DNA of 64,000 bases, from positions 1,701-65,700 of the forward strand of contig CAYSXG010000001.1 in NCBI GenBank assembly GCA_964434895.1, in the 5' to 3' direction. The stretch comes from an uncultured Solibacteraceae bacterium. GTDB lineage: Bacteria > Acidobacteriota > Holophagae > Holophagales > Holophagaceae. Positions 3,872-45,775 of this stretch are shown piece after piece (the first letter of the stretch is position 1; each line of letters starts with the position of its first letter). The position numbers and the translations under genes are program-made. Under the pieces are notes generated by a model. It did not search any database. It was not told the origin of the DNA and saw only the letters and a list, made by a program, of their open reading frames with translations.

Positions 3872-4962
3872 GCGGCCTCCTTTCGAGAAGTGGTTTTGGA
3901 TTTGGCCGCCTTGATCGGGTAGATGCGGCCGTAGGGGGTTTTCGGGGTTTCGGTGGTGTGGCTCTGCCGCAGGGCCAGGAGCTCCGCCGGCGGAATGGCG
4001 GCCCGGAGGGCGAGATCGCGGATCACCGCCTCCACGTCCTCATCTCGCTTCTTGCCGAAGCCCTGGAGGGTCCAGCGGTAGGCGGCCCCGTGCAGTTCCT
4101 GGGCGTCGCCCGCGACCAATGCGTTGTCGAGGATGGCCTTGCAGGCCTCCTCCCGGCCCTTCGATGCCTTGATGTCGGCCTGGACTGCGGCGAGATCCAC
4201 CAGGGCCTGGGCCACCTCCCCGGCCGCCTCGATGACGCGCTTTTCTTCGCGCTCCATCCGTTGGAGGAGGAAGTCCCGGGCCTCGCCCAGCATGGTCTGG
4301 CCCTCGGGGCGGACCTGCGGGAGGACGTGGGCCTCCCAGAACCGGATCCCGGCGGCCACTGCCAGCTCGAAAAACTCAGGGTCCGCTTGGAGGTGATAGG
4401 TGCGCTCCTCCACGAGGGCGGCCGCATAGGCCACTTCGTAGGGCAGGCCGCGGCCGATCATGCGCTTGGCCACTTCGAGATCGTAGAAGCCGGCGTGAAG
4501 GTCCCAAAAGGCCCGGCCCGTCAGGCCCATGTACCACTGGCACTGCACCCAGTAGTCCATGGGCACGTCGCCCGAGCCATCGGCGCCCCACTTGGAGTCG
4601 TCCTTCAGCAGGGTCTGTATGTTCGAGGTCTTGATCTCCAGGCCAAGGTCCGCGCGGTCCTGCACCAGGAAATCCGGCGAGCCCAGCAGGAACTCGTGGC
4701 CCGGGTGCCGGACCAGTTCCGGCTTGGTGAGGCTGTACCCCGTGCGGACGGCGTAGCCATGGGCGACCAGCGCTTCCCAGGCGTTCCCCAGATTCATCGC
4801 GAAGGAGGCCGGGGTCTCCAGGCCCTCGACCTTCTTGAGGTAGATGGTGAGGGCGTTCGACCAGGTGGAGGCCCCCAGGATGGCGGCCATGTCCGTGCCG
4901 CCGAGGCCAGTGCGTCGCTCGGCAAGCCAAGCCTCGCGGGACATGGAATTTTCAGCAGACAA
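3868..4962 (-). CDS. YqaJ / lambda-Exo-like recombination exonuclease
   Basis: The track ORF 3868..5397 is over-extended. The homology starts at SREAWLAERRTGLGGTDMAAILG and includes GSPDFLV...LGLEIKT (PD-ExK). I set the start at TTG 4962 just after AAGGAGG; ATG 4944 is the alternative. Confidence 0.8.
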   Translation of the reverse strand: MSAENSMSREAWLAERRTGLGGTDMAAILGASTWSNALTIYLKKVEGLETPASFAMNLGNAWEALVAHGYAVRTGYSLTKPELVRHPGHEFLLGSPDFLVQDRADLGLEIKTSNIQTLLKDDSKWGADGSGDVPMDYWVQCQWYMGLTGRAFWDLHAGFYDLEVAKRMIGRGLPYEVAYAAALVEERTYHLQADPEFFELAVAAGIRFWEAHVLPQVRPEGQTMLGEARDFLLQRMEREEKRVIEAAGEVAQALVDLAAVQADIKASKGREEACKAILDNALVAGDAQELHGAAYRWTLQGFGKKRDEDVEAVIRDLALRAAIPPAELLALRQSHTTETPKTPYGRIYPIKAAKSKTTSRKEAA

Positions 4963-5224: not shown

Positions 5225-5890
5225 ATGACCACGACCCCTGATCGCCCTGTAGCCGATGGTTGGCTTCCTGGCTGGGGTGAGCGGTGGCGCCAAGTTCGCA
5301 CGAAGGCCCGCCCAAAACTGACCCTGGAGGATGTCGGGCGCACCCTGGGCATCCGGCATACCGCCGTCGCCAAGATCGAGAAGGAGGCTATCGCCACCCC
5401 TCCGAAAGAGGCCTACCTCTGTACTCTGGAATCCGCCTACGGCTGGAGCCCGGACTGGATCAAGCGTGGCGAGCTACCCATGTCCCGCGAGACCTGGAAC
5501 CGCGACAACCTGCGCAAGGCCTTCGAGGCTCAGGCCGGCGGCAAGAGCATTCAGGGCCTGTACGTGGTCCAGGCCGGGCACGGCATGGCCCCGCACCTCC
5601 AAACCGGGGACATCCTGAACTGGGCCCCGGCCGAGCCGGCCCACGGCGCCCTGATCCTCGTGGCGCCCCCCAAGACCAAGGATCTGGTGGCCGATGGGGT
5701 CACTTCCACCAAGGCCATGCCCGGCATTGCCATTCGGACCGAAGGCAAGGCCGGCATCTCCTGGATGCTCTACCGCTCCGAGGACACCCAGAACCCTGGC
5801 TCCTACCGCGCCATCGACCTTTCCGGCTGGAACATCCTCGGGCGTGTCGTAAGCGTAACCCGGGCTCTCCCCGAATCTCTTTTGGCCTAA
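5225..5890 (+). CDS. CI/LexA-like repressor (HTH plus S24-like C-terminal domain)
   Basis: 221 aa. The N-terminal HTH is LTLEDVGRTLGIRHTAVAKIEKE. The C-terminal part, GHGMAPHLQTGDIL...ILGRVVSV, resembles the S24 self-cleavage fold. The gene is divergent from the recombination operon. Confidence 0.7.
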   Translation: MTTTPDRPVADGWLPGWGERWRQVRTKARPKLTLEDVGRTLGIRHTAVAKIEKEAIATPPKEAYLCTLESAYGWSPDWIKRGELPMSRETWNRDNLRKAFEAQAGGKSIQGLYVVQAGHGMAPHLQTGDILNWAPAEPAHGALILVAPPKTKDLVADGVTSTKAMPGIAIRTEGKAGISWMLYRSEDTQNPGSYRAIDLSGWNILGRVVSVTRALPESLLA

Positions 5891-6855
5891 TTTCTCTCAT
5901 TTAGAGAGAAAATCAGGTCTTTCAAGCGATTCTTGGCAATGAGTCGAGCAGTCAGGCCCTCGTAGCCTTGAGCCGCCTGCTCTGCTTCGGCCCGGAATCG
6001 CTGGAGCACATCCGGAGCATGTGCCTCCATGGCCGCGATGGCCCGCTCCCGAAGGTCATTCCAGGCAGGCGAGTCAAGGTCGGCGTTCTTCCAGGCCGTC
6101 ACAGCCGCCCAGATTCCTCCGTCATCCGAAGGCGCAGCCGGGTCGATCAGCCGGCCTAGCCGCCGGGCCCGCTTGGCCTGGAGCAGCACATCCTCGCCCA
6201 TGCCGGTGTCGCCCAGGGCCCCGAGCACCCAACCGAGCGGATCCCGGACGGGGCGGTAGCCTGCCCTGCCCTTCCGCCAGGCCAACGCCGTGCGGGCCGC
6301 GGTCAGGATCCGGAGGGCCTCAGCCCCTCGCCAGGGGCTTTTCTTGGCCACGCCCTCCAGCCGTTGGGAATCCACAGGCCCGAAGGTGGCCAGTTCCTGA
6401 GCGATGTTCCCAAAGACCGATCCCCAAGCCCCTCCAGGTACCGGCGCAGGCGCGGGCGCCTTGCATGTAGAAACCGGAGGTTTCGGCTCTGACCGAAGGG
6501 AAGAGCCGGGAGAAGGGGATTTTTCGCGCCGGGAAGACGAAGAAAAGGCCCAGGCATCCAGGCCCTTGAGCTGGTAGCGGCCGGCCTTTCTGGCGCCAAA
6601 GTTTGGGGCCTCCACTTGGTCCAGCAGGCCCGCCGTCTGAAGCTGAGGAATGGCAAGCCGAACGGTCGTGGCATCGCACTTTCCCGCCTTGGCAAGCTGC
6701 TGGGGGGTCCAATCCTGAGAGAACCCGGCCCGAGCCTCTCGGGCGGTCCAGGTCAAGAGGGCCCCACGGACAGCACGGCCAACGCCAGCCGCGGCGATCC
6801 GGTCCTCAAGGGCCTGGAGCCAGGATCCGAATTTCTTGGAATAGGGCGCAGCCAT
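5887..6855 (-). CDS. wHTH protein, possible replication initiator (positional guess)
   Basis: 322 aa. The N-terminal CDATTVRLAIPQLQTAGLLDQVE segment looks like a winged helix. The gene lies beside the repeat array and parA. No catalytic motif recognised. Confidence 0.4.
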   Translation of the reverse strand: MAAPYSKKFGSWLQALEDRIAAAGVGRAVRGALLTWTAREARAGFSQDWTPQQLAKAGKCDATTVRLAIPQLQTAGLLDQVEAPNFGARKAGRYQLKGLDAWAFSSSSRREKSPSPGSSLRSEPKPPVSTCKAPAPAPVPGGAWGSVFGNIAQELATFGPVDSQRLEGVAKKSPWRGAEALRILTAARTALAWRKGRAGYRPVRDPLGWVLGALGDTGMGEDVLLQAKRARRLGRLIDPAAPSDDGGIWAAVTAWKNADLDSPAWNDLRERAIAAMEAHAPDVLQRFRAEAEQAAQGYEGLTARLIAKNRLKDLIFSLNERN

Positions 6856-7235
6856 GACAGCTCCGCCGGGGGCAGAAACAGTAGACAGGGCCGGCGCGTC
6901 GGCCTACCCTTTGGATGTCAGGTGCAAGTCCGTTCCTACTGTTTTTCCGCCTCCGGTTGAAAAGTGGTTTTGGATGGGGACGGGCCGAGCTGGTAACTCA
7001 GCACCTGACATCCTCACGATCCCCGGGTTGCACCTCGGGGGTTTTGGGTTATGGGTTGAGGATGCTGGCTGGGCAGGCCTGCCGCAAGGGCAAACCCGCA
7101 TGGGACCTCGATTTCCGTCTGTATTACTAGCGGTGTTTTCAGCCTCACCGCCGCCCATCCTTTCGGTCACCAATGAAGTGGTGACTCCGGATGGACGGAC
7201 GAGACTACAGACGGATGGCCAGCTGGAAGTACCGC

Positions 7236-7424
7236 TGACAACACGGCTGGCAAGCAATCGAGCAAGGCGTAGCGCGGTACAGTCGACAAGCAATGAAGCA
7301 TCATGAACGATAGCACAGCCGACAATCTATCCGGCAATACAGCCGACAATCTTGACGACAATTCAAATTGCCGAATTGACGGTAATCGGATTGGGCGCAA
7401 TCTTGGTGTGAGCCAATCGAGCAA
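7236..7424. repeat. Phased short-repeat array upstream of parA (candidate centromere/operator or iterons)
   Basis: YGACAA starts at 7236, 7284, 7320, 7344 and 7356, giving spacings of 48, 36, 24 and 12 bp. ACAGCCGACAATCT occurs twice (7315, 7339) and CAATCGAGCAA twice (7255, 7414). The region is AT-richer. Confidence 0.55.
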
Positions 7425-7441
7425 CCCACCAAGGAGGGAAT

Positions 7442-8137
7442 GTGTCCGCCCGACAATCCAGCAACTCGAAATCCCGCAGGAAACAGGAAAGGGGCCGCGT
7501 CATTGTCATCGCCAACCTCAAGGGCGGCGTAGGGAAAAGCTCAATCGCAAGTTATCTAGCCGCTTACCTGGAGCAGGATCGAGAGGTAGCCATCCTCGAC
7601 CTGGACGATGGCCAACGCGATTCGGAGCGCTACGCCAAGATGCGGGGCGGCATCCAACTCGCGGCGGCCGGGACCCACGCGGAGGTCTACGATGAGGTCC
7701 AAGCCTTGATTTCCCGCGGGGTGGACGTTGTGGTGGACACCCCCCCGGGGGAGGTCACTGCCTCAAAACTGGCGTTCTACCTGGCGGATGCCGTGGTGAT
7801 GCCAGTGCGCCCTGGTGCCAACGACGTGGCGGCCATCGGTCGGCTCATGTCGATGGTTAACGAGATCCGCGATGAGCGTCCCGATCTGCAAGTCTTCACC
7901 ATCTGCAACTTCTTCAAGGGCAGCCGCGAAGCGACCCTCATGGTGGACATCCTCAAGGTCATGACCAACGCCCAATTTGTGGGCCGACTCGCGGACCGAA
8001 AGGACTATTCGGTGGCCCTTTCCGAGGGGAAGACACCCTGGGAAATCGCGCCTGGGAAGCCTGCGGGAGAGGAGATGCTGGCCCTTTGCGCCTGCCTGGA
8101 TCGCATCATTGAGGTGAATAATGCCAAAGCAAGGTGA
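7442..8137 (+). CDS. parA: ParA/Soj-family partition ATPase
   Basis: 231 aa with a GTG start after AAGGAGG. It has the deviant Walker A motif VIVIANLKGGVGKSS and is the size of a small type Ib ParA. Confidence 0.85.
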   Translation: MSARQSSNSKSRRKQERGRVIVIANLKGGVGKSSIASYLAAYLEQDREVAILDLDDGQRDSERYAKMRGGIQLAAAGTHAEVYDEVQALISRGVDVVVDTPPGEVTASKLAFYLADAVVMPVRPGANDVAAIGRLMSMVNEIRDERPDLQVFTICNFFKGSREATLMVDILKVMTNAQFVGRLADRKDYSVALSEGKTPWEIAPGKPAGEEMLALCACLDRIIEVNNAKAR

Positions 8138-8567
8138 AGATGCCCGGCGAGCCCGCCTCCTCTCGCTAATTGACGTAGGGCGGCAGGAGCGAGAAGCCAG
8201 AACCACGAGGCCTCTTGTCGTCGCCACCCACATCGAGGAGGAACCCCACCCAGACAAGGAGACCCCCCCGGCCGAAGCTGAGACGGAAGTTCCGCCCGCC
8301 CAGTACCCCGAGCCTATCTCCGGGGAGGCTATGGACAACCCCATCGCCCATCTTGAGCGCCGCAAGCGGGGGTTGAGGAACGATCCGGGTTGGATCGGGA
8401 CGACCATCTACCTCCGGAAGCCGACCCACAAGGCCGCCAAGAAGGCCGCGGAGTCTCTGGGAATCGACCTCTCCCGCCTTGTGGAGTTCTGTGTGTCCAT
8501 GCAGATGAGAGAGGAGAGCAGGGCCCCCGAACTGCGCGACATGCTGGGCCTCAAGCAGGAGGATTAA
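8121..8567 (+). CDS. Ribbon-helix-helix centromere-binding partner (ParG-like)
   Basis: 148 aa, overlapping the parA 3' end by 17 nt. The C-terminal TTIYLRKPTHKAAKKAAESLGIDLSRLVEF looks like an RHH motif, and the N-terminal part is acidic and Pro-rich. Confidence 0.55.
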   Translation: MPKQGEDARRARLLSLIDVGRQEREARTTRPLVVATHIEEEPHPDKETPPAEAETEVPPAQYPEPISGEAMDNPIAHLERRKRGLRNDPGWIGTTIYLRKPTHKAAKKAAESLGIDLSRLVEFCVSMQMREESRAPELRDMLGLKQED

Positions 8568-8621
8568 CCACGCGAGTGCTGCGCCAAGGTGGCATTCCCG
8601 AGAACCCATGACCCCCATGAT

Positions 8622-8649
8622 GGGATCCCACATGGATCCCGACTTTTCC
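8622..8649 (+). terminator. Rho-independent terminator after the par operon
   Basis: Stem GGGATCC, loop cacat, stem GGATCCC, followed by GACTTTTCC. Confidence 0.55.
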
Positions 8650-8663
8650 ACAGGAAGCGCGGA

Positions 8664-8831
8664 ATGAAAACCATCATATTCCGAGGTAAGACCAACCGCC
8701 GGGGCCGCAAGGCCGACAAGATGCGCCACCGCCGGATGATGGCCCAGACCGAAGAACTCCGGGCCCAGGTCCGATCCAACCCCAACCACACCGCCGGCCC
8801 GAAGGCCTGGTACCCCAGCAGGAGGGGATGA
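8664..8831 (+). CDS. Small basic protein (55 aa)
   Basis: Internal ATG of track ORF 8589..8831, placed after AGGAAG. Third positions are GC-rich. MKTIIFRGKTNRRGRKADKMRHRR... Confidence 0.35.
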   Translation: MKTIIFRGKTNRRGRKADKMRHRRMMAQTEELRAQVRSNPNHTAGPKAWYPSRRG

Positions 8832-9088
8832 TGGAGCTGGCAATTGGGTTGGGCGGCATCCTCGTCGGGGTCCTCGGCCTTGCGGCCACTTTCTACTTCG
8901 GCTTTGAGGCCCGGCGACAGCGCACGGCCAGAGAGAAGGCTGTAATCGGGACCACCGCTGCGATCCATCGGGCCCATGGGCTCCTGGTAGGCCTCAAGGC
9001 GGCGGAAGTCAACGAGAAGATATCCACGGCGATTGGTGACGGGCTGGAGGGCCTGCGACAAGCCAAGCAGATCCTGGAAGAGCTGTAG
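8828..9088 (+). CDS. Small membrane protein (86 aa)
   Basis: ATGA overlap with the upstream ORF. N-terminal TM segment LAIGLGGILVGVLGLAATFYFGF. Confidence 0.45.
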   Translation: MMELAIGLGGILVGVLGLAATFYFGFEARRQRTAREKAVIGTTAAIHRAHGLLVGLKAAEVNEKISTAIGDGLEGLRQAKQILEEL

Positions 9089-9090
9089 CC

Positions 9091-9279
9091 ATGCTCAAGC
9101 CGAAAGAGCCAAAGGACCATGGTAGTGAAACCATAGCGACCAGCATCCTTGCCGAGCGGGAGGCTTGCGCCAGGGTCGCCGACAACGTGGCCGCAGCCCG
9201 GTACAAGGCGGGCGACATGGAAGGGTGGGGGACTGCCTGCCAAGTGGCAAAGTTCATTCGAGAGCGATCTGTGAAATAA
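9091..9279 (+). CDS. Hypothetical 62-aa protein
   Basis: Track ORF starting 3 nt after the previous stop. No motif recognised. Confidence 0.4.
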   Translation: MLKPKEPKDHGSETIATSILAEREACARVADNVAAARYKAGDMEGWGTACQVAKFIRERSVK

Positions 9280-9281
9280 TT

Positions 9282-9680
9282 ATGAAAGCCCAGAAGCCCA
9301 TTACGGCACCAAGGAGGCCAAGAATGGAAAACTCCATACCCCCAGCGTTCGACAAGAACCGCGATTATACAGACTCAAACTCAACTCATTGCGTCCTAAA
9401 AATGCTCTTTGAATCAAAGGGACAGATGGACGCTTCAATGAAGGAGAAGTTGGCCGAGGCTGCGAAGGATGCAACCGGGAATGAGTTGTGCCTCTATTTT
9501 CAAGAAGTTCACTGGAATTTCCGTGTGGCACATGATGCTGAATCAAGGACAGCACCCGTTGATTTAGTTGGGCGCTTGACCATCAACGCCACGGCCATGC
9601 TCCTAGATCAAACGGACTGGGAAGAGGTCGCTCATAAGGTCCCATCCATCTTGGATGGGACGATTTCATTCCGCCTATAG
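9282..9680 (+). CDS. Hypothetical protein in an AT-rich cargo segment
   Basis: Internal ATG (residue 40) of track ORF 9165..9680, giving 132 aa. The segment is visibly lower in GC than its surroundings. No motif recognised. Confidence 0.5.
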   Translation: MKAQKPITAPRRPRMENSIPPAFDKNRDYTDSNSTHCVLKMLFESKGQMDASMKEKLAEAAKDATGNELCLYFQEVHWNFRVAHDAESRTAPVDLVGRLTINATAMLLDQTDWEEVAHKVPSILDGTISFRL

Positions 9681-10107
9681 TCCCAATAAACCACAACAGG
9701 CGCTTGCTATTCAGGGTGACGCCCGGCTTCAGGGCGGGGCTGGAGCCGCCTGTGCGGGGAGCCGAAACCGCATCGCAGCCGCGTAAGGCTCTTCTCCGCA
9801 CTCGGCAGGTAGTGGGTAGACCAGCCCATTCGGCGAATTCCACCACGGAGTCGGGTTCCCGACCAGGATGGGGCACTACCAACAAACGTGCTATGAGGGG
9901 CCATCTGTGGCCTGCGCGTCAGAAACGAACGTATTTGACGCATCAAGGTCGGATGTCCTGGATGGCGACTACCCGGAGAGCGGGCGGTTTGAACCTTCGC
10001 GGCGGGACCTTCTTCCCGAATGCCGGCCTCACGCCGGAGGCCCGCCCAGAGGTCCGCATCCGTGGGGGTCATGCCCAAGGGTAGCGTAAAAAAAGCGAAA
10101 TTTTTCC

Positions 10108-10137
10108 AGTTTCACATACTAGCAGGTATGTGAAACT
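10108..10137. repeat. Perfect 12-bp-arm inverted repeat AGTTTCACATAC-tagcag-GTATGTGAAACT
   Basis: Read directly from an AT-rich intergenic stretch, preceded by TAAAAAAAGCGAAATTTTT. It could be an operator, part of an origin, or a hairpin. Confidence 0.5.
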
Positions 10138-10175
10138 GCGCCGCGTTTAAGCCGGGGCAGGGGGCCCAGTACGGA

Positions 10176-10421
10176 ATGGGTCATTTCAACAGCGAATTTA
10201 TAAAATTCCCTTCAAGGAAAATTTGTATTGCACGAAGCGCCTGCGTGACCTACCGTGAGGGTATCCAAACCACTGCCTGGACCACCACTCCGGGCCACCC
10301 ACTGGAGGCGCTCGTGCGAGCCATACTCTCTACCCTCTCCCTGCACCAAGAAGCCCTGAAAGACGGGGGCGTGGTGCTCATGCTCCTCGCCGGCACCTGG
10401 GCCGCCTGGCTCCTGTTCTGA
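10176..10421 (+). CDS. Doubtful small ORF with a C-terminal hydrophobic segment
   Basis: Track ORF whose 5' part crosses palindrome site 2 and is AT-rich. The 3' part (LEALVRAILSTL...VVLMLLAGTWAAWLLF) looks coding and ends 9 nt before the next start. The true start may be GTG near 10246. Confidence 0.25.
   Translation: MGHFNSEFIKFPSRKICIARSACVTYREGIQTTAWTTTPGHPLEALVRAILSTLSLHQEALKDGGVVLMLLAGTWAAWLLF
10202..10224. promoter_or_regulatory. 23-bp near-palindrome AAAATTCCCTTCAAGGAAAATTT (site 2 of 3)
   Basis: 21 of 23 positions match site 1. It lies about 200 bp upstream of the rightward operon. Confidence 0.45.
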
Positions 10422-10430
10422 GGTGATCTC

Positions 10431-11558
10431 GTGACCACCACCACCCCAACCGACCCCGGCATTCTCCAGGGCGTCCTCGTCCCGGAACCTGAATCCGCCC
10501 ATGGCCTGCTCACCCTCGTCCCGGGCCGGGCGCCCCAAGAGCTCTTCACCGACGCGGACGTGGTGGCCCAGCTCCTCACCTGGGTGCGCCAGGAGGCCCA
10601 GGCCTTCACGCCGGACCTCCGCACGAAGAAGGGCCGCGACGAGATCGCCTCCCGCGCCTACCGCGTCGCCAAGACCAAGGCTTACCTTGACGAGGTTGGG
10701 AAAGACCTGGTGGCGGACCTCAAGGAAGCGCCCAAGCGCGTGGACGCTGGGCGGAAGGTACTGCGTGATGGCTTGGACGCCCTGCGGGACGAGATCCGCC
10801 TGCCCCTCACCGCCTGGGAGGAGCGCCAGGACGTGATGAAGCGCCGAGTGGAGCGGATCCTGGCCCTTCCCGCCACCCTACGGGACGCGGATTCGATCAC
10901 GCTCCAATCCTCCATCAAGGCCCTGGACGCCGACCCCATGCAGGAGTCCTCCGAGTGGGGTGAATTCGCCGGTGAGGCCGCGACCGCCAAGGCGGCCACG
11001 TTGCCCCTCCTGCGCAACATGCTGGCGGATGCCATCCGCCGCGAGGCCGAGGCCGCCGAGTTGGAAGCCCTACGGCGCGAGAAGGCCGCCCAGGAGCAGC
11101 GGGACCGCGAGGAGCGGATCCGCCAGGAGTCCGCCGAACGCGCCCAATCCGAGGCGGAGGCCCGGGCCCGGGCCGAACGGGAGGCCGCGGCCCGGCGGGA
11201 AGCCGAAGCCGTGCTGGCCAAGGAGCGGGCCGAGCGCCAGCTTGAGGAGGAGCGCCGGCAGGCATCGCAGCGCGAAGAGCAGGCCCGCCAGGAGGCTGTG
11301 GAGGCCGAGCGGCGCCGCGCCGAGACCGAGCGCCTGGAGCGGGAGCTCAAGGACACCTTCGAGCGCGAGGAGAAGGAACGCCGTGAGGCCGATCTCCAAC
11401 ACCGCCAGCAGCGCAACCGCGAGGCCCTGACAGACCTCATGGGCGTTCTGGAACGGCAGACGGACACCCTGATCTCCAGCCAAGCGAAGGCCATCATCAC
11501 CGCCATCGTGAAAGGCGAGATCCGTAACGTTGGCATCAACTACGGGGTCCAAGCATGA
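10431..11558 (+). CDS. Coiled-coil phage early protein (DUF1351-like by eye)
   Basis: 375 aa with a GTG start after GAGGTGA. It contains a long E/R/A-rich coiled coil (REAEAAELEALRREKAAQEQRDREERIRQE...). Confidence 0.55.
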   Translation: MTTTTPTDPGILQGVLVPEPESAHGLLTLVPGRAPQELFTDADVVAQLLTWVRQEAQAFTPDLRTKKGRDEIASRAYRVAKTKAYLDEVGKDLVADLKEAPKRVDAGRKVLRDGLDALRDEIRLPLTAWEERQDVMKRRVERILALPATLRDADSITLQSSIKALDADPMQESSEWGEFAGEAATAKAATLPLLRNMLADAIRREAEAAELEALRREKAAQEQRDREERIRQESAERAQSEAEARARAEREAAARREAEAVLAKERAERQLEEERRQASQREEQARQEAVEAERRRAETERLERELKDTFEREEKERREADLQHRQQRNREALTDLMGVLERQTDTLISSQAKAIITAIVKGEIRNVGINYGVQA

Positions 11559-11929
11559 ATCGAATCCAGATCAAGGTCGCGCGAGCGGACGGCCTGCCGG
11601 GCTTCGCCGCCTACCTCGCCGAGACGCTTTCCAGCCTTGGCAAAACCACCATCGACCTGGATCCCAACCAGGCCCTGGTGCTGCTCGACGTGGAGGCTAT
11701 CTTCGATGATGAGGCCGTGGTCAGCGAAGATGGAAGCCCCATCCCGCCATCCACTCCCCAGGAGCGAAGGCGGCACATGATCCAGACCCTCATGCATGAA
11801 TTCGGGCACGTCCTGGAGGAGTTCTTCGGGCAGGAATTCGATGAGGACTGGATCGAGAACGTCGTTCAATCCTGGCGGGACCGCAGCGAGCAGGGCCGTG
11901 TCCTGATAATTCACAACTCGGACACGTAA
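11555..11929 (+). CDS. Small acidic protein with an HExxH motif
   Basis: 124 aa with an ATGA overlap to the upstream ORF. The only recognisable motif is MIQTLMHEFGHVLEEF. Confidence 0.5.
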   Translation: MNRIQIKVARADGLPGFAAYLAETLSSLGKTTIDLDPNQALVLLDVEAIFDDEAVVSEDGSPIPPSTPQERRRHMIQTLMHEFGHVLEEFFGQEFDEDWIENVVQSWRDRSEQGRVLIIHNSDT

Positions 11930-12063
11930 ATCGTCGGTAGGCCGCACAGGGCCTCAGTTCTTTGCAGAGCTACGAAATTATCAGACACGCGGTTTTTCTG
12001 GGAAAAGCCGCGGAAACACTACCAACTTTCCAACCGGAAATACTGTCCATCCTCGGAGCATCC

Positions 12064-12249
12064 GTGATCGCCTACCACTACTGCGCCATCAAAGGACTTC
12101 CGGATGGCTCAACAGCCTACTCGGATGGAATCGTCCAGTCAGACCGTCCGATGATGGCTGGCGACCTCCCCAACCTCCGCGCTGAAATCGGAGCCGGGAA
12201 GGGATGGGAAGCTGGCAGTTTCAACATCCTCTCCCTCACCCGTTTGTGA
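12064..12249 (+). CDS. Hypothetical 61-aa protein
   Basis: GTG start 20 nt after TGTCCATCCTCGGAG. The upstream part of track ORF 11962..12249 has poor third-position GC. Confidence 0.45.
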   Translation: MIAYHYCAIKGLPDGSTAYSDGIVQSDRPMMAGDLPNLRAEIGAGKGWEAGSFNILSLTRL

Positions 12250-12921
12250 ATGTCCAATCCTCTTCCCAACCTGAAAGCCCCTCGCATGCGCCAATGCACC
12301 GAAGTCGAATTTCTTGCCGATGTTGCCGCCCACGTCATGACCGTCGAGCATGACGACGGGGTGTTCCGCCACCTGCGCTTCGCCAAGCCCGGCGCGTACT
12401 GCATGTGCTTCATGCTCACGACATGGCCTGGGCACCTGGCCATCAGCGGGGACATGGGAACCTACGTGTTCGACCGCACCCGGGACATGTTCACGTTCTT
12501 CCGCACCAAGCCCGACCGGAATGAGGAATACCCGATTAATCCTCAGTATTGGGCTGAGAAGTGCGAGGCCATGGACACTCGAACCGGCCTCGATGGAAGT
12601 ATCCGGGTTTTCGATGCAGACAGCCTTCGGGCGAACGCAAGGGAAGCCTGGGAGAGCCACTTTGAAGACGACCTTGAGAGCGAGGCGGCGAAGGAGTGCT
12701 GGGAAGCCATCCAAGACGAAGTGTTGCGGTCAGAAAATGGGTATGAGGCATACGAGTCCGCTAGTAATTTCGAGCACGAAGGTTTCCAATTCCATGATTC
12801 CTGGGAATGGAACAACACCACCTATGCCTTCCGCTTCCTCTGGTGCCTCTACGCGATCACCTGGGGCGTCAGGCAGTACGATTCCGCCACCACGCCCGCG
12901 CCGGCCGAAACCAGCCGCTGA
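12250..12921 (+). CDS. Conserved hypothetical protein (223 aa)
   Basis: Track ORF. VMTVEHDDGVFRHLRFAKPG...TTWPGHLAISGDMGTYVFDRTRDMFTFFR looks like a conserved mobile-element family that I cannot name. The start is either ATG 12250 or ATG 12286. Confidence 0.6.
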   Translation: MSNPLPNLKAPRMRQCTEVEFLADVAAHVMTVEHDDGVFRHLRFAKPGAYCMCFMLTTWPGHLAISGDMGTYVFDRTRDMFTFFRTKPDRNEEYPINPQYWAEKCEAMDTRTGLDGSIRVFDADSLRANAREAWESHFEDDLESEAAKECWEAIQDEVLRSENGYEAYESASNFEHEGFQFHDSWEWNNTTYAFRFLWCLYAITWGVRQYDSATTPAPAETSR

Positions 12922-12941
12922 TGTCCAATACGAGGCGCACG

Positions 12942-13277
12942 ATGCCTGACGATAAAAAAGACCCAGCACTCATCCTCCACGAAGCCATCTTCATCTGCGG
13001 GGACTGCCCGGAGTGTGGCTCCGACAACTGGACCGATTGCGAGCAGTATGGCGAATGCCACTCCTGCGGCACGAGGTTCAACCCAACCATTCCACGGCAA
13101 ATGAAGTTGGCTTCACAGGCGCTGGATGCGATCCGCGCCCGCATCTACGAGCTGGAGGGTCGTTGCCAAGAGGCGGAGACAGAGCGCCGCGCATACCGTG
13201 GAGCGCTCCGCGACATCTCAAACGAGACGACCGAAATTGCCCCGTCCCTCTACGCCTACGCCATCCTCAACCCATAA
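12942..13277 (+). CDS. Zinc-ribbon protein with a coiled-coil tail (111 aa)
   Basis: ATG 20 nt after TGTCCAATACGAGG. Cysteine pairs CGDCPECG...CHSCG. Confidence 0.6.
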   Translation: MPDDKKDPALILHEAIFICGDCPECGSDNWTDCEQYGECHSCGTRFNPTIPRQMKLASQALDAIRARIYELEGRCQEAETERRAYRGALRDISNETTEIAPSLYAYAILNP

Positions 13278-13300
13278 TCCTGTCCAGTACGAGGCACCAC

Positions 13301-13519
13301 ATGCAATGGCAACCGATTGAAACAGCGCCGAAGACGCGAGAATTGAAAATCCTGACTTATGGGGTAGTTCCCGAAAACTACGGCTACACGCAAGAAGAGT
13401 GGCTCATCTCGATTTCGGAATGGTGTGGAAACGGCTGGGCTTCCCAGGCTAGTTCGCCTTACGGGAACCGCTTCCAGCCGACCCACTGGATGCCTTTACC
13501 TGAACCACCCACCTTCTAA
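13301..13519 (+). CDS. DUF551-like small protein (72 aa)
   Basis: ATG 20 nt after the motif. WQPIETAPK...PTHWMPLPEPP is the typical DUF551 signature. Confidence 0.6.
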   Translation: MQWQPIETAPKTRELKILTYGVVPENYGYTQEEWLISISEWCGNGWASQASSPYGNRFQPTHWMPLPEPPTF

Positions 13520-13551
13520 ATCATGTCCATCCTCAGTCCCAGGAGAAGCCC

Positions 13552-13755
13552 ATGACTGAAGACCGTTACCACGACCTCGACAAGGTGGTGAGCGCCGAGG
13601 TGCTCTCCAGTCTCAAGGGGCAGGTCATCCCCGAAGTCTGCCCAGTTTGCCGAGGCGAAGGGAAGGATGGGGAACCCGGCGATGAACCCGGTACGGGCTA
13701 CACCTGGGCATGCGAGAACTGCGGCGGCTCCGGCACCATCAACCGGCAGTATTGA
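13552..13755 (+). CDS. DnaJ-type zinc-finger mini-protein (67 aa)
   Basis: Two CxxCxGxG motifs, CPVCRGEG and CENCGGSG. It is preceded by the long motif variant, including a 10-codon upstream ORF whose stop overlaps this ATG. Confidence 0.6.
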   Translation: MTEDRYHDLDKVVSAEVLSSLKGQVIPEVCPVCRGEGKDGEPGDEPGTGYTWACENCGGSGTINRQY

Positions 13756-13757
13756 TC

Positions 13758-13919
13758 TTGTCCAGTACGGAGCACCCCATCGAAGGCGCGGTCTCTTCCT
13801 TGATTGAGGACGCCATCATCGACCGCGTGCTTTCGATCCACCTAGACTCGGACGAACTAGACCTCACCATCAGACCGCGCTCTGTCTACATCGCCTTCGA
13901 ATCCTCCAATCCCATTTAA
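13758..13919 (+). CDS. Small ORF with a non-ATG start (TTG 13758, or ATC 13779)
   Basis: The motif context matches the copy at 14621, but ATC sits where ATG is expected. An in-frame TTG lies immediately upstream of the motif. Product about 53 aa. Confidence 0.35.
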   Translation: MSSTEHPIEGAVSSLIEDAIIDRVLSIHLDSDELDLTIRPRSVYIAFESSNPI

Positions 13920-13947
13920 CTGCAAATGTCCAGTACGAGGACCACGC

Positions 13948-14193
13948 ATGAGCCCACGATTCAAAATCGCCTACGTCCCCTGGTGGCGCCCCGTTCGGCT
14001 GGCGGCATGGTCCACCGACAATGACGGCAAGCGGACGGGCTTCGAGTTTGTCGGCTGGGTTTGGCGCCAGAAAGCCTACCTCGTCAACAACATCCATTAC
14101 GGCTGGATCGCCTTCGTGGAAGACCAACAGCCCGAGAAACTGGAAGTCTGCCCATCCTGCAAGCGCAACCTTCACCTGCCTGTGGGCGAGTGA
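13948..14193 (+). CDS. Hypothetical 81-aa protein
   Basis: ATG 21 nt after TGTCCAGTACGAGG. It has a C-terminal CPSC. Confidence 0.5.
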   Translation: MSPRFKIAYVPWWRPVRLAAWSTDNDGKRTGFEFVGWVWRQKAYLVNNIHYGWIAFVEDQQPEKLEVCPSCKRNLHLPVGE

Positions 14194-14223
14194 ATGTCCA
14201 TCCTCACCCCCAGGAGCCCCGTC

Positions 14224-14388
14224 ATGGACGCCGACCTCTTGCATGATCTGCAACGTCTTATCGACGATGCACCGATGGAAACCGCAGGGATTGCTCTTGC
14301 GGCAAGGGATCTGATCGCAGAACTGGAACGAGAGAATTTCCAACTCAAGGACCGCCTTGAGAAGCCATGCCCAGGCTGTGGGCTGTGA
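14224..14388 (+). CDS. Hypothetical 54-aa protein
   Basis: ATG after ATGTCCATCCTCACCCCCAGGAG. The C-terminus is CPGCGL. Confidence 0.45.
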   Translation: MDADLLHDLQRLIDDAPMETAGIALAARDLIAELERENFQLKDRLEKPCPGCGL

Positions 14389-14407
14389 TGTCCATGAGCT
14401 ACGCACG

Positions 14408-14617
14408 ATGACCAACATCCTCCAGAATCACCCCAAGGGCGCACCCGGAAGCCCAACTGCCATCAACAACGGCTGCAAGTGTCCTGTGATTGACAACGGG
14501 CACGGGCGCGGGATGTACACCGACACGGATGGCATCGCTGTCTACGCGGTGAACCGTGATTGCCCCATCCACCACAACGAAATCGACTGCTTCCCAATCC
14601 CCTTTGAGGAAATGTGA
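14408..14617 (+). CDS. Cys/His-rich 69-aa protein
   Basis: ATG 19 nt after TGTCCA. NNGCKCPVIDNGHG...DCPIHHNEIDC. Confidence 0.5.
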   Translation: MTNILQNHPKGAPGSPTAINNGCKCPVIDNGHGRGMYTDTDGIAVYAVNRDCPIHHNEIDCFPIPFEEM

Positions 14618-14641
14618 GTCTGTCCAGTACGGAGCACCCCC

Positions 14642-14926
14642 ATGGAACCCAAGATCCGCGTGTACCACGATGACCCGTACGAAATCGCGTACACGGTCCT
14701 ATACAACGAACTCAAAATCGACGTTACGAGTTACAGCTCGGACTACCCAAACACTCATCTAGCCGGAGAGACTCGCGTTTCGTGGTGCTGCGGGTTTGGC
14801 GGGATGCGATCCGACCTCTCGGAAGTGGCTGCGGACCTGGAGTGGATGGCTAAGGCTATCCGCGACATCGGACAACTCGGGGCACGATCATGGCTCACCA
14901 TCATTGCTCATACCGTCTTGTCTTAA
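14642..14926 (+). CDS. Hypothetical 94-aa protein
   Basis: ATG 21 nt after TGTCCAGTACGGAG. Confidence 0.5.
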   Translation: MEPKIRVYHDDPYEIAYTVLYNELKIDVTSYSSDYPNTHLAGETRVSWCCGFGGMRSDLSEVAADLEWMAKAIRDIGQLGARSWLTIIAHTVLS

Positions 14927-14950
14927 TCCTTGCCCATCCTCGGAGCACCC

Positions 14951-15406
14951 TTGCCCACCCGTGACCCCATCCCCACCGGCACACGCATCAAGGACAACGA
15001 TCCCCGCGTCACCTACGACCGCATCCTGGAGGTGGTGGAGAGCCTGACCGACGACCTGCAAATGATCGAGGACGCTCTTGCCCGTTTCGGATGCGAGGAA
15101 GGATCTGCCCTCCGCGTGGCGGTTAATCGGGTTTGGAAGGCTTGCGCTGACCTCAACGCCGCCCCCGCCCCCGACTGGATGATCATCGACGCCACCCGCT
15201 ACGCCCTCGGGCGCCGGACGTACCAGGTGTCCGTCACCTGCGAGTGGCTGCTGGCGAACTGGACGGAGGTTCCGGAAGACGCTCGGGAGATCATCCAACG
15301 GGACATCGAGGAAGCCTTCAGGCGCCGTGGCGGCACGGGCGATCCCTACGACCGTGCCGAATGGGATAAGGTCCGCGCCCTCTGGCTCAATGCCAACTCT
15401 TTTTGA
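14951..15406 (+). CDS. Hypothetical 151-aa protein
   Basis: TTG start 20 nt after TGCCCATCCTCGGAG, by analogy with the copy at 12044. The track ORF starts at 14930. Confidence 0.5.
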   Translation: MPTRDPIPTGTRIKDNDPRVTYDRILEVVESLTDDLQMIEDALARFGCEEGSALRVAVNRVWKACADLNAAPAPDWMIIDATRYALGRRTYQVSVTCEWLLANWTEVPEDAREIIQRDIEEAFRRRGGTGDPYDRAEWDKVRALWLNANSF

Positions 15407-15429
15407 TTTTGTCCAGTACGAGGACCCAG

Positions 15430-15642
15430 ATGGGCGACAACCTCAACACATTCCTTACACGGCTCCCTAACCTTCCTCGCCCTGAACCGGGCTGGAAGCC
15501 CAAACCAATCGTCAAGATTGGGACCGAGACCGAATTTGGGACCGTGGAGGGCATGCGGACGCAGGACGGTGAGCGCTTCTACTTCATCAAAGACGCACAG
15601 GGCACCGTTTCTCTGATGCCCGCCTCAGTAATCGAACCCTAA
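15430..15642 (+). CDS. Hypothetical 70-aa protein
   Basis: ATG 20 nt after TGTCCAGTACGAGG. Confidence 0.5.
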   Translation: MGDNLNTFLTRLPNLPRPEPGWKPKPIVKIGTETEFGTVEGMRTQDGERFYFIKDAQGTVSLMPASVIEP

Positions 15643-15666
15643 CCGCGAATGTCCAGGAGCTGCACT

Positions 15667-16113
15667 ATGGCTTTTTCAAAGACCGGAGGCTACACGGGTC
15701 CCGCTCCTAAAAAGGGGGCTCCTCCGTCCAAGCCGCCCACGACTGCGGGGACGCTTGCCACCAAGCCCGCAATCTCCGGGACGAAGGGGCCGGAGGCCAT
15801 TGCTGATCTGGCCCCCCTTGAAGAGGCACTGCGCCGTGCTGAAAGGGCTGAGGCTCATGCCGCTGCGCTGGCGGATCTGGTTAAGGCGGTTGAAGACTGG
15901 GAGTCGTTCATACTCGCCGTGTCCCCCGAGGGGAGGTGGGCCCCACAGGAAGTCTACCTCTCAGAGGCGCTTCGAGCCGCAACTAGCCGATGGCCGAAAA
16001 CCATTGCGGTGCGCGTGGCTGACGAGCGTGCCCGCTGCATCGCCCATGTGGGCCGGTATCTCGTGGGAGAGATTGAAACGCAGGCCGAGCTGCGGCAGAA
16101 GCTGGAGGGTTGA
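15667..16113 (+). CDS. Hypothetical 148-aa protein
   Basis: ATG 17 nt after TGTCCAGGAG. The N-terminal part is Pro/Lys-rich. Confidence 0.5.
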   Translation: MAFSKTGGYTGPAPKKGAPPSKPPTTAGTLATKPAISGTKGPEAIADLAPLEEALRRAERAEAHAAALADLVKAVEDWESFILAVSPEGRWAPQEVYLSEALRAATSRWPKTIAVRVADERARCIAHVGRYLVGEIETQAELRQKLEG

Positions 16114-16116
16114 CCG

Positions 16117-16323
16117 ATGGCACGCGATTACATCCTGATTTGCCCGTCATGCAGGAAGCGCAAATTCCTTTGTAGCATTGGTGTATTCCAGTCTGGCGAA
16201 TTGGGGAGCCAAGACGTGAATGATGCCGCTGATTTCATTAGTGAGCATCAGAGGCACCCCGGAGGCGTTCGGGCCGTCGATGAGCATGATCCCCTGTACG
16301 ACGAAATTGGGTACGACGACTAG
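16117..16323 (+). CDS. Hypothetical 68-aa protein (CPSC motif)
   Basis: Track ORF, lower in GC than its neighbours. Confidence 0.45.
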   Translation: MARDYILICPSCRKRKFLCSIGVFQSGELGSQDVNDAADFISEHQRHPGGVRAVDEHDPLYDEIGYDD

Positions 16324-16338
16324 TCGGAGAGGAAGACG

Positions 16339-16542
16339 ATGAACCCCACAACAACAGTGAAGGTCGATGGAGAACCGAAAGAGCGTCCCATCGTGGTTCG
16401 AGACGGCAGGCCCGGGCCCGAACTCCGCCCTGGAGAGATCCTTTTTCAAACCATCGGCGGCGACTGCTTCATCATCCAGGGCCCGCCCCAATTCGATCAC
16501 CCCGAAGATCGGCCACCCAGGGCCTTCAGGTATTGGGAGTAG
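16339..16542 (+). CDS. Hypothetical 67-aa protein
   Basis: Track ORF with GGAGAGGAAG upstream of the ATG. Confidence 0.45.
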   Translation: MNPTTTVKVDGEPKERPIVVRDGRPGPELRPGEILFQTIGGDCFIIQGPPQFDHPEDRPPRAFRYWE

Positions 16543-16569
16543 GCACAGTAGGGACTGTGAGGTTACGCG

Positions 16570-16710
16570 ATGCCCCCGAACGTAGATATTCTCGACTTCC
16601 CTATGGACCTAATCTGGCAGCAGGCCAGCGCCTACACGCTCTTCGTGATAGCGGTGGCCTTTGTGGTCGCGCTGGTATGGCTCGACCGGAAAGATAGGGC
16701 CCGAAGATAG
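16570..16710 (+). CDS. Possible 46-aa single-pass membrane peptide
   Basis: Hand-translated, and below the ORF-track size cut-off: MPPNVDILDFPMDLIWQQASAYTLFVIAVAFVVALVWLDRKDRARR. Confidence 0.3.
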   Translation: MPPNVDILDFPMDLIWQQASAYTLFVIAVAFVVALVWLDRKDRARR

Positions 16711-16714
16711 CCCC

Positions 16715-17071
16715 ATGCCCACATCTCCTTCATTCCCTCCGCTTCGCACCCTTGAAGACCTTCACGCGAAGGCCTCTGCGATTGGCTGGCGGTGCTTGGC
16801 GACGGCGTTTCTCGGGGCGGATGTCCCGGTGCCTTGGGAGTGCGGCGAAGGCCACCCGATTGAGGCTTCCCCCAACCACATCCGCTACGGCCATCGTTGC
16901 CGCCTCTGCGCCTTGGGGCTCAGGGCTTCCAGGTCTCCAGCACCTTCTCCTCAGCCAGGAGCGCCCCCACCGCCCGCGAAGGGGACCGTAGAAGCAAAGG
17001 TGAGGCCGAAGAACCGGCCCGAGAGAAGGCCTCGCAAGCGCCCGGTCACATGCAGGGGCGTGATCGCCTAG
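16715..17071 (+). CDS. Zinc-ribbon-type protein (118 aa)
   Basis: Internal ATG of track ORF 16661..17071. WECGEGHPIEASPNHIRYGHRCRLC resembles a common H..CxxC ribbon. The Pro/Arg-rich tail may be an over-extension. Confidence 0.4.
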   Translation: MPTSPSFPPLRTLEDLHAKASAIGWRCLATAFLGADVPVPWECGEGHPIEASPNHIRYGHRCRLCALGLRASRSPAPSPQPGAPPPPAKGTVEAKVRPKNRPERRPRKRPVTCRGVIA

Positions 17072-17307
17072 CCCACAATCGCGTGCCCAGGCAGCGCGAT
17101 CAGGAAGGCCCTATAGTCCGCACGGTCGCAGAGCAGGATCACCTCCACGCCGCGGAATTCGGCCGCCACCAACAGGGCCCAGCCGTCCTCAAAGGGTTCG
17201 GCGCCCACCACCCGACCGCAGGAACTGGCCGGAGGCAGCTCCCTTGAGGGGAAAACACGGCGCCCCAGCAGCAGGGCGACCTCCTCACCCCGGAAGGCGG
17301 CGCTCAC
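17068..17307 (-). CDS. Hypothetical 79-aa protein downstream of the recombinase
   Basis: 4-nt overlap with the recombinase 3' end. No motif recognised. Confidence 0.4.
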   Translation of the reverse strand: MSAAFRGEEVALLLGRRVFPSRELPPASSCGRVVGAEPFEDGWALLVAAEFRGVEVILLCDRADYRAFLIALPGHAIVG

Positions 17308-18227
17308 TGGAGACCCGCCGCCATGGCAGTGGCCACTTGGCCGGCCAAATCCTTCCGGTTGTCGTCGTAGATGACCACGGTGGCGATGGACTTGTGGCGG
17401 CTGAACCGCTGGACCACCCGGATGTCATAGCCCGCATCCAGCGCGGCCGTGATGGCGCTGTGGCGGATCCCGTGGGGCCAGACTCGCTTCACGCCGGCCT
17501 TGACGGAGAGGGTCAGCACCACATGCCAGATGGCCCGCCCCGTGAGCGGGGAGGGGTCTTCCGTGCGCCCTGGGTCCAAACGGTGGAAGAGGGGCCCCTC
17601 GGCATCCCCGCGCCATTCCAGCCACGCCTGGAGGGCCTGGCGGGTGCCGGGCGGCAGGGTGAGATCCGTGCGGTCCTCCTGCCCCTTGCCCAAGATGGCG
17701 ATTCGGGAGGCCTGAAGATTCAAGTCCACGAGGCGCAGGGAGGCAACCTCGCCCCGACGAAGGCCCAGGTCGTACAGGAGGCGAAGCATGGCCACATCCC
17801 GGGCCGCCTTCTCCTCGGCTTGGGCGCGGGCGGCCTGGAGCAGGGCCTGGACAACCTCAGTGCCGGGGCCAGCCGTGTTCCGGTAGTGGCTTACGGTCGG
17901 GTAGACCACATCCAATTCGTAGTCGCACACCCGGCCCAGTTGGGCCAGGCGAACGAGGGACCGGAGCGCCTTCAGGCGGGCGTGGACCGTCTGCGGGGCC
18001 CGTCCAGCTTCCTGGAGGGACTTCTGGAACTCCAGGGTGATGGTGGCCGCCTCCAGGCTCCCGCAGGAGGTCAGGTAGGCCACCGCCTGCACCGGCGAGG
18101 TGCCCAACCAGCGGGCGAAAGCCTTCAGGCCATCCCGGTAGACGGCGGCCGTCGCCGGGCTGAGGCGAAGCAGGAATTGCTCCAACAGCCGCTTATGGGC
18201 GGGTTCAATCGTGCGTAAGGCTTGCAT
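17304..18227 (-). CDS. Tyrosine recombinase (XerC/D-like integrase family)
   Basis: 307 aa with the catalytic pattern LGLRRGE (Arg), HGIRHSAIT (HxxR) and SRHKSIATVVIYDD (His...Tyr). Confidence 0.85.
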   Translation of the reverse strand: MQALRTIEPAHKRLLEQFLLRLSPATAAVYRDGLKAFARWLGTSPVQAVAYLTSCGSLEAATITLEFQKSLQEAGRAPQTVHARLKALRSLVRLAQLGRVCDYELDVVYPTVSHYRNTAGPGTEVVQALLQAARAQAEEKAARDVAMLRLLYDLGLRRGEVASLRLVDLNLQASRIAILGKGQEDRTDLTLPPGTRQALQAWLEWRGDAEGPLFHRLDPGRTEDPSPLTGRAIWHVVLTLSVKAGVKRVWPHGIRHSAITAALDAGYDIRVVQRFSRHKSIATVVIYDDNRKDLAGQVATAMAAGLQ

Positions 18228-18244
18228 GGCGGAAATTTCCCGCC
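18228..18244. promoter_or_regulatory. 17-bp near-palindrome GGCGGAAATTTCCCGCC abutting the recombinase start codon
   Basis: Read directly. It occupies the position where a ribosome-binding site would be expected, and shares GGAAATTTCC with the 23-bp palindrome family. Confidence 0.3.
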
Positions 18245-18266
18245 ATTTTAACGAACGCGCAAGGGG

Positions 18267-45648: not shown

Positions 45649-45775
45649 GGGGCGAGAGTCAGCCGATTCAAAGCCCCCGTGCCGAGCCGTCCCGCGCCAT
45701 TACGCGATGACGCGAGGCGCCGGGAAATGGGGCCGGAGCACCCGGGGACGCTGGACAGGCAAGAGGAGCGACCGC

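Follow-up and report, generated by a model that had tools for sequence, protein, structure and literature searches.

The stretch of DNA analysed here (the window) comprises 64,000 nucleotides (nt) out of a 65,710-nt metagenomic contig, CAYSXG010000001.1, which is itself incomplete, and it appears to hold the greater part of a temperate, myovirus-like phage, at least 68 kb in size, the lysogens of which probably carry it as a low-copy plasmid. This interpretation is built on a maintenance cassette, in which a winged-helix gene stands divergently from the genes of a small ParA ATPase and its partner across a repeat-rich spacer. The genes, the repeats, their homologies and the conservation of the cassette on relaxase-bearing contigs and in phages are observed directly. 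A phage-plasmid had already been proposed in the initial annotation of the window, and the proposal is borne out in part: the sharing of the cassette, a circular relative and a plasmid-associated recombinase speak for it, while the Rep label given to the winged-helix gene and the ribbon-helix-helix (RHH) fold given to the ParA partner were not confirmed. This kind of element is already known (Pfeifer et al., 2021; PMC7969092); the novelty lies in the lineage, in the sharing of a whole cassette between plasmids and phages, and in the orphan winged-helix family.

The ParA encoded in the window has 231 amino acids (aa), a deviant Walker A motif (NLKGGVGKSS) and no N-terminal helix-turn-helix (HTH) extension, as expected of type Ib partition proteins, which are small Walker-type ATPases of about 200-230 aa lacking an N-terminal DNA-binding domain and carrying KGGxxK[ST]. 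It matches CbiA/MipZ/ParA in Pfam and the 'ParA-like partition protein' of PHROG (3.5e-25) along its full length, and its residues 20-216 align with positions 1-201 of the 203 of the NCBIfam model ParA_partition with a score of 91.6 bits, the equivalog cut-off being 180. Identity to annotated plasmid ParAs is about 30%, and such matches fell on 1479 plasmid records versus 8 phage records. The small ParA with KGGVGKS of the initial annotation is thereby confirmed. An anti-phage defence role of the cassette was also considered and rejected, as PADLOC gave a local P-loop match only.

Immediately downstream, the overlapping gene encodes a 148-aa candidate centromere-binding protein, in which a six-member alignment delineates a conserved N-terminal peptide, a Pro-rich linker and a conserved C-terminal domain of about 55 aa. 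Its position directly downstream of parA, its size and the lack of a ParB/Spo0J domain in Pfam searches fit a type Ib system. The overlapping gene predicted earlier is thus present, while the RHH fold assigned to it was not confirmed: the only Pfam match was DUF6364 at E 0.1, no relevant PDB profile turned up, and a single-sequence AlphaFold model reached a predicted local distance difference test (pLDDT) score of 56. The only feature that fits an RHH is the conserved C-terminal pattern, a strand-like 'TTIYL' followed by two helices.

Upstream of parA, the array proposed earlier could be verified. Four GRCAAT units stand in exact 12-nt phase at 7315-7362, flanked on either side by degenerate and inverted copies, and 5 of the 15 plus-strand GRCAAT sites in the 64 kb fall within 130 nt (7321-7452), one further copy being inverted. 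Guanine-cytosine (GC) content drops to 43-48% over the array, versus about 63%. Short repeats upstream of parA are the centromere or operator of type Ib loci, and the array is a putative binding site of this kind. Repeats containing GCAAT also precede parA in relatives, as TGCAATTG palindromes in the phage contigs L006 and L050 and as two copies of GATTGCG in the relaxase-bearing contig L010; the GCAAT core common to the parA-proximal repeats of the window, L006 and L010 fits related DNA-binding partners.

Table 1. Features of the maintenance region and its surroundings, with positions in the window.
Feature	Position	Strand	Basis
RecE/YqaJ-type recombination exonuclease	3868..4944	-	Pfam YqaJ 1.6e-22; PHROG 434 'RecE-like recombination exonuclease' 2.4e-46
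CI/C2-like HTH repressor candidate	5225..5890	+	Pfam HTH_3 E 0.003; PHROG 8 'transcriptional regulator' 3e-5
322-aa winged-helix protein, uncharacterised family	5887..6855	-	AlphaFold; cassette homologues
Winged-helix-proximal spacer half, candidate operator/iteron zone	6901..7220	.	GGATG cluster; 13-nt inverted repeat
parS/operator-like repeat array	7249..7464	+	GRCAAT units in local GC trough
Small Walker-type ParA partition ATPase, type Ib-like	7442..8137	+	KGGVGKS motif; family matches
148-aa ParA partner, centromere-binding protein candidate	8121..8567	+	overlaps parA by 17 nt
79-aa open reading frame (ORF) overlapping the recombinase stop	17068..17307	-	GC at third codon positions (GC3) 0.82; called as gene in L003
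307-aa Xer-like simple tyrosine recombinase	17304..18227	-	Pfam Phage_integrase 3e-25; XerC/XerA/XerD alignments
Palindrome ATGGCGG-GAAATTT-CCGCCAT (7-7-7), single copy	18226..18246	.	overlaps recombinase start codon

The ParA lineage of the window falls into about 22 clusters, and identity of the window's ParA to those on relaxase-bearing and phage contigs is 51-67%. Seven genomic contexts of this lineage were compared, and all of them contain the triad of a divergent gene (320-450 aa), a spacer, and the genes of ParA and a partner of about 150-180 aa. In two contexts (L010, L131) the triad is accompanied by a MOB relaxase and NikA/MobC, in another (L132) it lies on a plasmid-like contig of a metagenome-assembled genome with SSB and HU, and in one (P0007) it is flanked by polysaccharide genes. 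The contexts L006-L009/L050 and L134 are tailed phages with the gene order of the window: YqaJ, a CI-like gene facing the winged-helix gene, then ParA and partner across the spacer. The partners are homologous between cassettes (32-42% identity; 37-42% between the window and the genes downstream of ParA in L010 and L006), and a hidden Markov model (HMM) of the partner recovers it in every cassette. The winged-helix gene behaves similarly: its L006 homologue is 31% identical (BLASTP, E 8e-25), its HMM finds homologues beside ParA in L134, L006, L132 and L133 (1e-40 to 1e-117), and hhalign links it to the L132 and L131 proteins with probabilities of 99.4% and 96.7%, the divergent protein of L010 giving a marginal match only.

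Both phage relatives encode a homologous recombinase at a distance of 2 kb from parAB and, behind it, a ParE toxin and an HTH antitoxin (L006, 12044-13788; L134, 7858-9589), which suggests a block of partition, resolution and addiction functions. Since the par cassette keeps the same position in three diverged phages at 55-57% ParA identity, it is likely to be under selection and not a recent passenger. Scans of GTDB genomes and of metagenomes with the ParA alignment, which were swamped by the generic Walker A pattern, returned over substantial stretches only relatives of 23-31% identity.

The 322-aa protein, encoded divergently from parA across a 586-nt intergenic spacer, has no match in Pfam, PHROG or NCBIfam, and a word-indexed search returned only the protein itself; its family, about 15 representatives among 1.84 billion proteins, was found by exhaustive HMMER search. 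With the family alignment, AlphaFold gave a model of pLDDT 75.5, comprising a winged helix at residues 4-100 (pLDDT >90) and a helical domain at 145-235. PDB profiles and Foldseek returned generic MarR/TFE winged helices only, with E values of at least 0.09, and BFVD, which holds predicted viral structures, returned weak matches with a best E of 2.5e-4 and TM values no higher than 0.26, among them several proteins that bear the name of replication initiators or replisome organisers. The gene had been described earlier as a winged-HTH, Rep-like neighbour; the winged helix is predicted with confidence, while significant homology to known Rep families (Rep_3/RepA/TrfA/RepB-type) was found neither by sequence nor by structure. 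Pfam and NCBIfam likewise recognise no plasmid replicase in the element, and an Rfam scan gave a tRNA only and no replication-control RNA. The protein is thus a candidate plasmid-mode replication initiator or cassette regulator, and the term 'Rep' is a matter of position. A replication role gains some weight because no recognised Rep family occurs among the genes called on L010 and L131, which leaves the winged-helix gene as the sole candidate for replication among them.

The half of the spacer next to the winged-helix gene differs in its repeats from the half next to parA. Between 6901 and 7220 there are five direct and two inverted copies of GGATG, which makes this the densest 320-nt stretch for direct copies in the 64 kb (mean 0.6), and a perfect 13-nt inverted repeat, GGATGTCAGGTGC, has its arms at 6913-6925 and 7001-7013 (100% complementary). 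A 47-nt stretch of the same spacer (6949-6995) is 72% identical to the end of the RecE gene (3875-3921), including an exact AAGTGGTTTTGGAT, and may be a shared binding site. A broader proposal, which we put forward tentatively and hold to be rather doubtful, is that the winged-helix family (322-452 aa) represents a previously unrecognised plasmid replication initiator, and that the three genes of the triad, with their 0.5-0.7 kb repeat-rich spacer, would form a portable 'rep-par' cassette captured by myoviruses to give a new phage-plasmid group in high-GC environmental bacteria.

The rest of the window is that of a contractile-tailed, myovirus-like phage with a GC content of about 65%. It encodes a tail sheath and tube, a 919-aa protein of tape-measure size, an SLT lysin, a baseplate wedge protein, a major head protein and tail-fibre-like proteins, and a HicB-like antitoxin (PHROG 497, 1e-17; 20356-20640, plus strand) lies inside the tail/lysis region. 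Neither a terminase nor a portal stood out among those window ORFs that were scanned with Pfam or PHROGs; the two may be encoded beyond the window, as the element continues past both ends, or may be too divergent. When the definition of phage-plasmids of Pfeifer et al. (2021; PMC7969092) is applied, virion, lysis and lysogeny genes are present (sheath, tube, baseplate, major head, SLT lysin, CI-like repressor), and replication and/or partition genes are represented by the cassette, the lineage of which also occurs on relaxase-bearing contigs. Near-identical sequence was found in four runs, all from one rock-metagenome study, and the first 25 kb, compared by megablast with collections of phages and plasmids, had no match.

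The initial annotation had stated that no host genes were visible in the 64 kb, and this holds beyond the window ends. A left extension from a 98%-identical strain (L005) adds 1728 nt and a right extension (L130) adds 2489 nt with further small phage-type genes; no cellular housekeeping or host gene was seen across these at least 68.2 kb, a search for long direct repeats throughout the window revealed no att-like duplication, and none was found in either extension. The two extensions do not overlap each other, so the element is at least 68.2 kb long and open, with no visible host flank. A phage-borne tRNA-Met (CAT) at 62721-62795 on the minus strand stands some 1.2 kb short of the window's right end, and neither partial copies nor duplications of it were found near the recombinase. 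In the L006 phage, two independent assemblies of 61,002 bp agree at 100% identity, with the ends of each falling within the other; both are rotated versions of a single sequence, which gives a circular map free of host DNA.

The recombinase was earlier called XerC/D-like, and this description is sound as regards architecture: residues 21-290 align with the XerC, XerA and XerD models at about 1e-30, with around 100 bits against cut-offs of 220-335 (XerC, 103.9 versus 335; XerD, 97.4 versus 330), so that it is Xer-like and neither XerC nor XerD. From residue 21 it spans positions 12-274 of the 295 of the XerC model, and an arm-binding domain is absent. The residues R157, K181, H252, R255 and Y287 do not vary across the family alignment, and H278, in 'RHKS' (family consensus 'SRH'), could be read from the sequence; two domains and the R-K-H-R-H/W-Y residues place the protein among the simple tyrosine recombinases of the Xer/Cre type. 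Plasmid-borne recombinases are 38-45% identical to it (2079 plasmid records), whereas phage integrases reach at most 30% (147 records). The best annotated relatives lie on cyanobacterial plasmids, such as a 46-kb plasmid of Synechococcus elongatus, and on Azospirillum plasmids, while the recombinase of the L006 phage is 39% identical. The protein is a candidate multimer resolvase and, alternatively, an integrase.

The recombinase gene is the second-to-last of the tail/lysis operon. The 79-aa ORF that overlaps its stop has no family match and is unrelated to the ParE/antitoxin genes of the phage relatives, the place of which it takes. Over the start codon of the recombinase lies the single-copy palindrome, which may, speculatively, be a core site or an autoregulatory operator; no 21-mer within three mismatches of it appeared in 100 shuffles, and a pattern of the arms only is not rare by chance. 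This region is crossed without a break by Logan contigs of 59.5, 14.6 and 2.1 kb, and a search of four runs for alternative att junctions around the gene, in Logan contigs, which drop rare variants, gave only 18-19-nt chance matches to an unrelated contig. The earlier statement that the recombinase has no host junction nearby is in agreement with these data.

A plasmid prophage has to be weighed against an ordinary integrative temperate phage, in which the Xer-like recombinase would be the integrase of an adjacent attP, located for instance at the palindrome or in the gap 16895-17067. Such a phage would use the ParA cassette to position replicating genomes or to stabilise the excised circle, or would carry it as a recently captured plasmid module. 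Several observations weigh on this side and against a plasmid state. The recombinase lies between the late operon and the early genes, which is the classical int/attP position. Relatives of it are found at or near the ends of IMG/VR viral contigs (L152, L161, L163, L167, L148-L150) and others on long contigs (270-465 kb), of which the 465-kb one is from Azospirillum, and part of the family might act as integrases. If an attP is present beside the gene, the assembled molecules are the unintegrated form, and reads derived from virions or induced cells would be expected to assemble in attP form. The sequence of the element is still open, and the topology and copy number proposed for it are inferred. 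The circular map of the L006 phage is compatible with a plasmid prophage and equally with permuted virion DNA, and the scan of GTDB genomes gave no close relative, hence no lysogen to inspect. The RHH fold of the partner is unverified, and the winged-helix protein does not resemble any known Rep to a significant degree. Finally, the sequence directly left of the window (L005, 4279-6283) encodes a phage replication initiator of canonical type (PHROG 16167, 6e-48) together with a DnaB helicase; their presence indicates that the element has a replication module separate from the parA-adjacent winged-helix gene.

We nevertheless regard integration, and either role of the cassette under it, as unlikely. 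A lambda-type integrase module would have an arm-binding N-domain and, next to int, an attP with identity to a host attB, often at a tRNA 3' end; the 307-aa recombinase, which aligns to the Xer models from about residue 12-21, lacks such a domain, no tRNA fragment or duplication was found near it, and no tRNA gene occurs within 10 kb of 27 loci of its family; nor was a host junction seen near it or these relatives. The conservation of the cassette in the three phages, the bundling of the recombinase with a toxin-antitoxin pair beside par in the relatives, and the plasmid-borne nature of the nearest annotated recombinases also argue against it. A dual lifestyle, in which the phage integrates through the recombinase, persists as a plasmid through the par cassette and switches between the two states, is more improbable still. 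Both modules are intact, judging from the catalytic residues of the recombinase and the Walker A motif of ParA, and alternation between integrated and plasmid states is acknowledged for phage-plasmids (PMC7969092), but the data do not point to two states, and no junction variants occur in the four runs, within what the Logan contigs retain.

The reading favoured here is that of a temperate phage. The repressor described earlier as CI-like is weakly supported by its HTH match (Table 1) and by the N-domain of the P22 C2 repressor (E 0.013), and a gene of the same size occupies its position in L006 and L134. It is divergent from the leftward early operon, which begins with the RecE/YqaJ exonuclease and includes RdgC and a Holliday-junction resolvase. 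Of the RecET-like module proposed earlier, the exonuclease is well supported by Pfam and PHROG, while a 'RecT' partner was not identified. The phage could, in principle, be non-temperate, the par genes acting in lytic growth or in a carrier state, as suspected for some SPO1-like Bacillus phages; the HTH matches (E 0.003-0.013) leave room for this, and phage groups with partition genes but a doubtful plasmid state are on record (PMC7969092). We hold this to be very improbable, as the repressor-like gene stands divergently from the RecE/RdgC operon as in lambdoid immunity regions, and the recombinase, the HicB-like antitoxin here and the ParE/antitoxin pair in the relatives are typical of temperate elements.

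The cassette resembles the type Ib loci ParF/ParG/parH of TP228 and delta/omega of pSM19035, which likewise have a small ParA with KGGVGKS and no N-terminal HTH, and a small, unrelated DNA-binding partner directly downstream and overlapping, as the candidate does here; the short upstream repeats of the window could, as there, be both centromere and operator. It differs from them in the low identity of its ParA to annotated plasmid ParAs, in a partner with no detectable similarity to ParG, omega or any PDB chain, its RHH being unverified, and in a conserved divergent winged-helix gene that the classical two-gene locus does not have.

Another point of comparison is phage P1, with its parAB-parS, RepA/oriR, Cre-lox and phd-doc modules (PMC7969092). 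P1 is a myovirus with partition genes and a simple tyrosine recombinase that is not used for chromosomal integration, the same logic being proposed here; it also has addiction modules nearby (here HicB-like, with ParE in the relatives) and separate plasmid-mode and lytic replication (here the candidate winged-helix protein versus the phage initiator and DnaB). There is, however, no sequence relationship (megablast nil), the ParA/ParB of P1 are of type Ia whereas the system here is type Ib-like, and no RepA is recognisable in the present element. Cluster A mycobacteriophages are temperate, and a partition cassette underlies their plasmid-like lysogeny (PMC7969092, PMC7157519). In these, parABS replaces the integrase, whereas the par cassette and a tyrosine recombinase are both present here; they are siphoviruses of Actinobacteria with a type Ia-like ParB, and no homology to the present element was detected.

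Plasmid unnamed5 of Azospirillum thermophilum CFH 70021 (NZ_CP029360.1, 54,887 bp) is a separate replicon in an isolate genome. It carries a terminase, Gam, toxin-antitoxin pairs, RepA, ParB and a tyrosine recombinase 41% identical to that of the window; the presence of terminase and Gam beside RepA and ParB on a separate replicon gives it the look of a phage-plasmid. Unlike the present element, it has a large ParB/Spo0J-type partition protein and a recognisable RepA; the related sequences noted are the recombinase and a Dam methylase only, and neither a ParA of the window's lineage nor a member of the winged-helix family was seen on it. In two IMG/VR relatives of unnamed5 (L137, L139), the recombinase occurs together with a ParA-like gene. 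Closest in layout are the 61-kb phage (L006-L009, IMGVR_UViG_3300024349_000290) and L134, which have contractile-tail baseplate genes and an immunity/par region syntenic with the window: YqaJ, RdgC, the CI-like gene, the winged-helix gene (31%), ParA (55-57%), the partner (42%) and the recombinase (39%). The difference lies in the distance between the last two, as the recombinase of these phages is 2 kb from parAB and that of the window is separated from it by about 8.7 kb of small genes, with no ParE.

These small genes between par and the recombinase include six copies of TGTCCARTACGRRG (12922-15423, all on the plus strand; 0.04 expected by chance), which in both cases checked (13927, 14621) has its first base 21 nt upstream of a small early gene's ATG, and which may be a shared translation-initiation or regulatory block of the array.

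We infer every biochemical activity of the proposed plasmid lysogen, as well as its extrachromosomal state, from sequence, and the mechanism can be outlined as follows. The CI/C2-like repressor would silence the lytic genes. The 148-aa partner would bind the 12-nt-phased GRCAAT repeats upstream of parA, thereby forming a partition complex, and would probably repress the parAB promoter at the same time, in the manner of type Ib systems. ParA, a nucleoid-bound Walker ATPase in this scheme, would separate sister copies, probably under stimulation by the conserved N-terminal peptide of the partner. The 322-aa protein may act on the other half of the spacer, with its GGATG cluster and 13-nt inverted repeat, as plasmid-mode initiator or cassette regulator, whereas lytic replication would be carried out by the separate phage initiator and DnaB left of the window. 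Multimers of the circular prophage would be resolved by the Xer-like recombinase, like Cre does in P1.

Farther to the right, the window encodes two giant proteins on the plus strand. The first, of 1515 aa (45608-50155), combines a Zeta-toxin-like kinase domain with a C-terminal DNA methyltransferase (PHROG 15406, 1.6e-197), and the second, of 1612 aa (51544-56382), has an SNF2-type helicase in its C-terminal half (PHROG 62). Both resemble the 'polyvalent' proteins of plasmids and phages, a further plasmid-like trait. The nearest relatives of the major head protein (42496-43941, minus strand), at about 31-33% identity, belong to the Thermus phages Lalka8, Cumys and phiMa and to several myoviruses of about 90 kb with Gram-negative hosts, and one such gene lies on a 112-kb plasmid of Rhodovastum atsumiense.

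Phage-plasmids have been described chiefly in cultured bacteria, namely enterobacteria, Bacillus, Clostridia and mycobacteria (PMC7969092). If the interpretation given here is correct, an uncultured, high-GC, rock-associated group of myoviruses would be added to them, and the maintenance block, common gene for gene to relaxase-bearing, plasmid-like contigs, would be a concrete case of module exchange between plasmids and phages. If the element integrates instead, partition cassettes by themselves would prove a poor basis for recognising phage-plasmids in metagenomes. The uncharacterised winged-helix family is likely to supply the factor for replication or control that a widespread ParA lineage has so far lacked, and it is small enough for direct testing in a cloning host.

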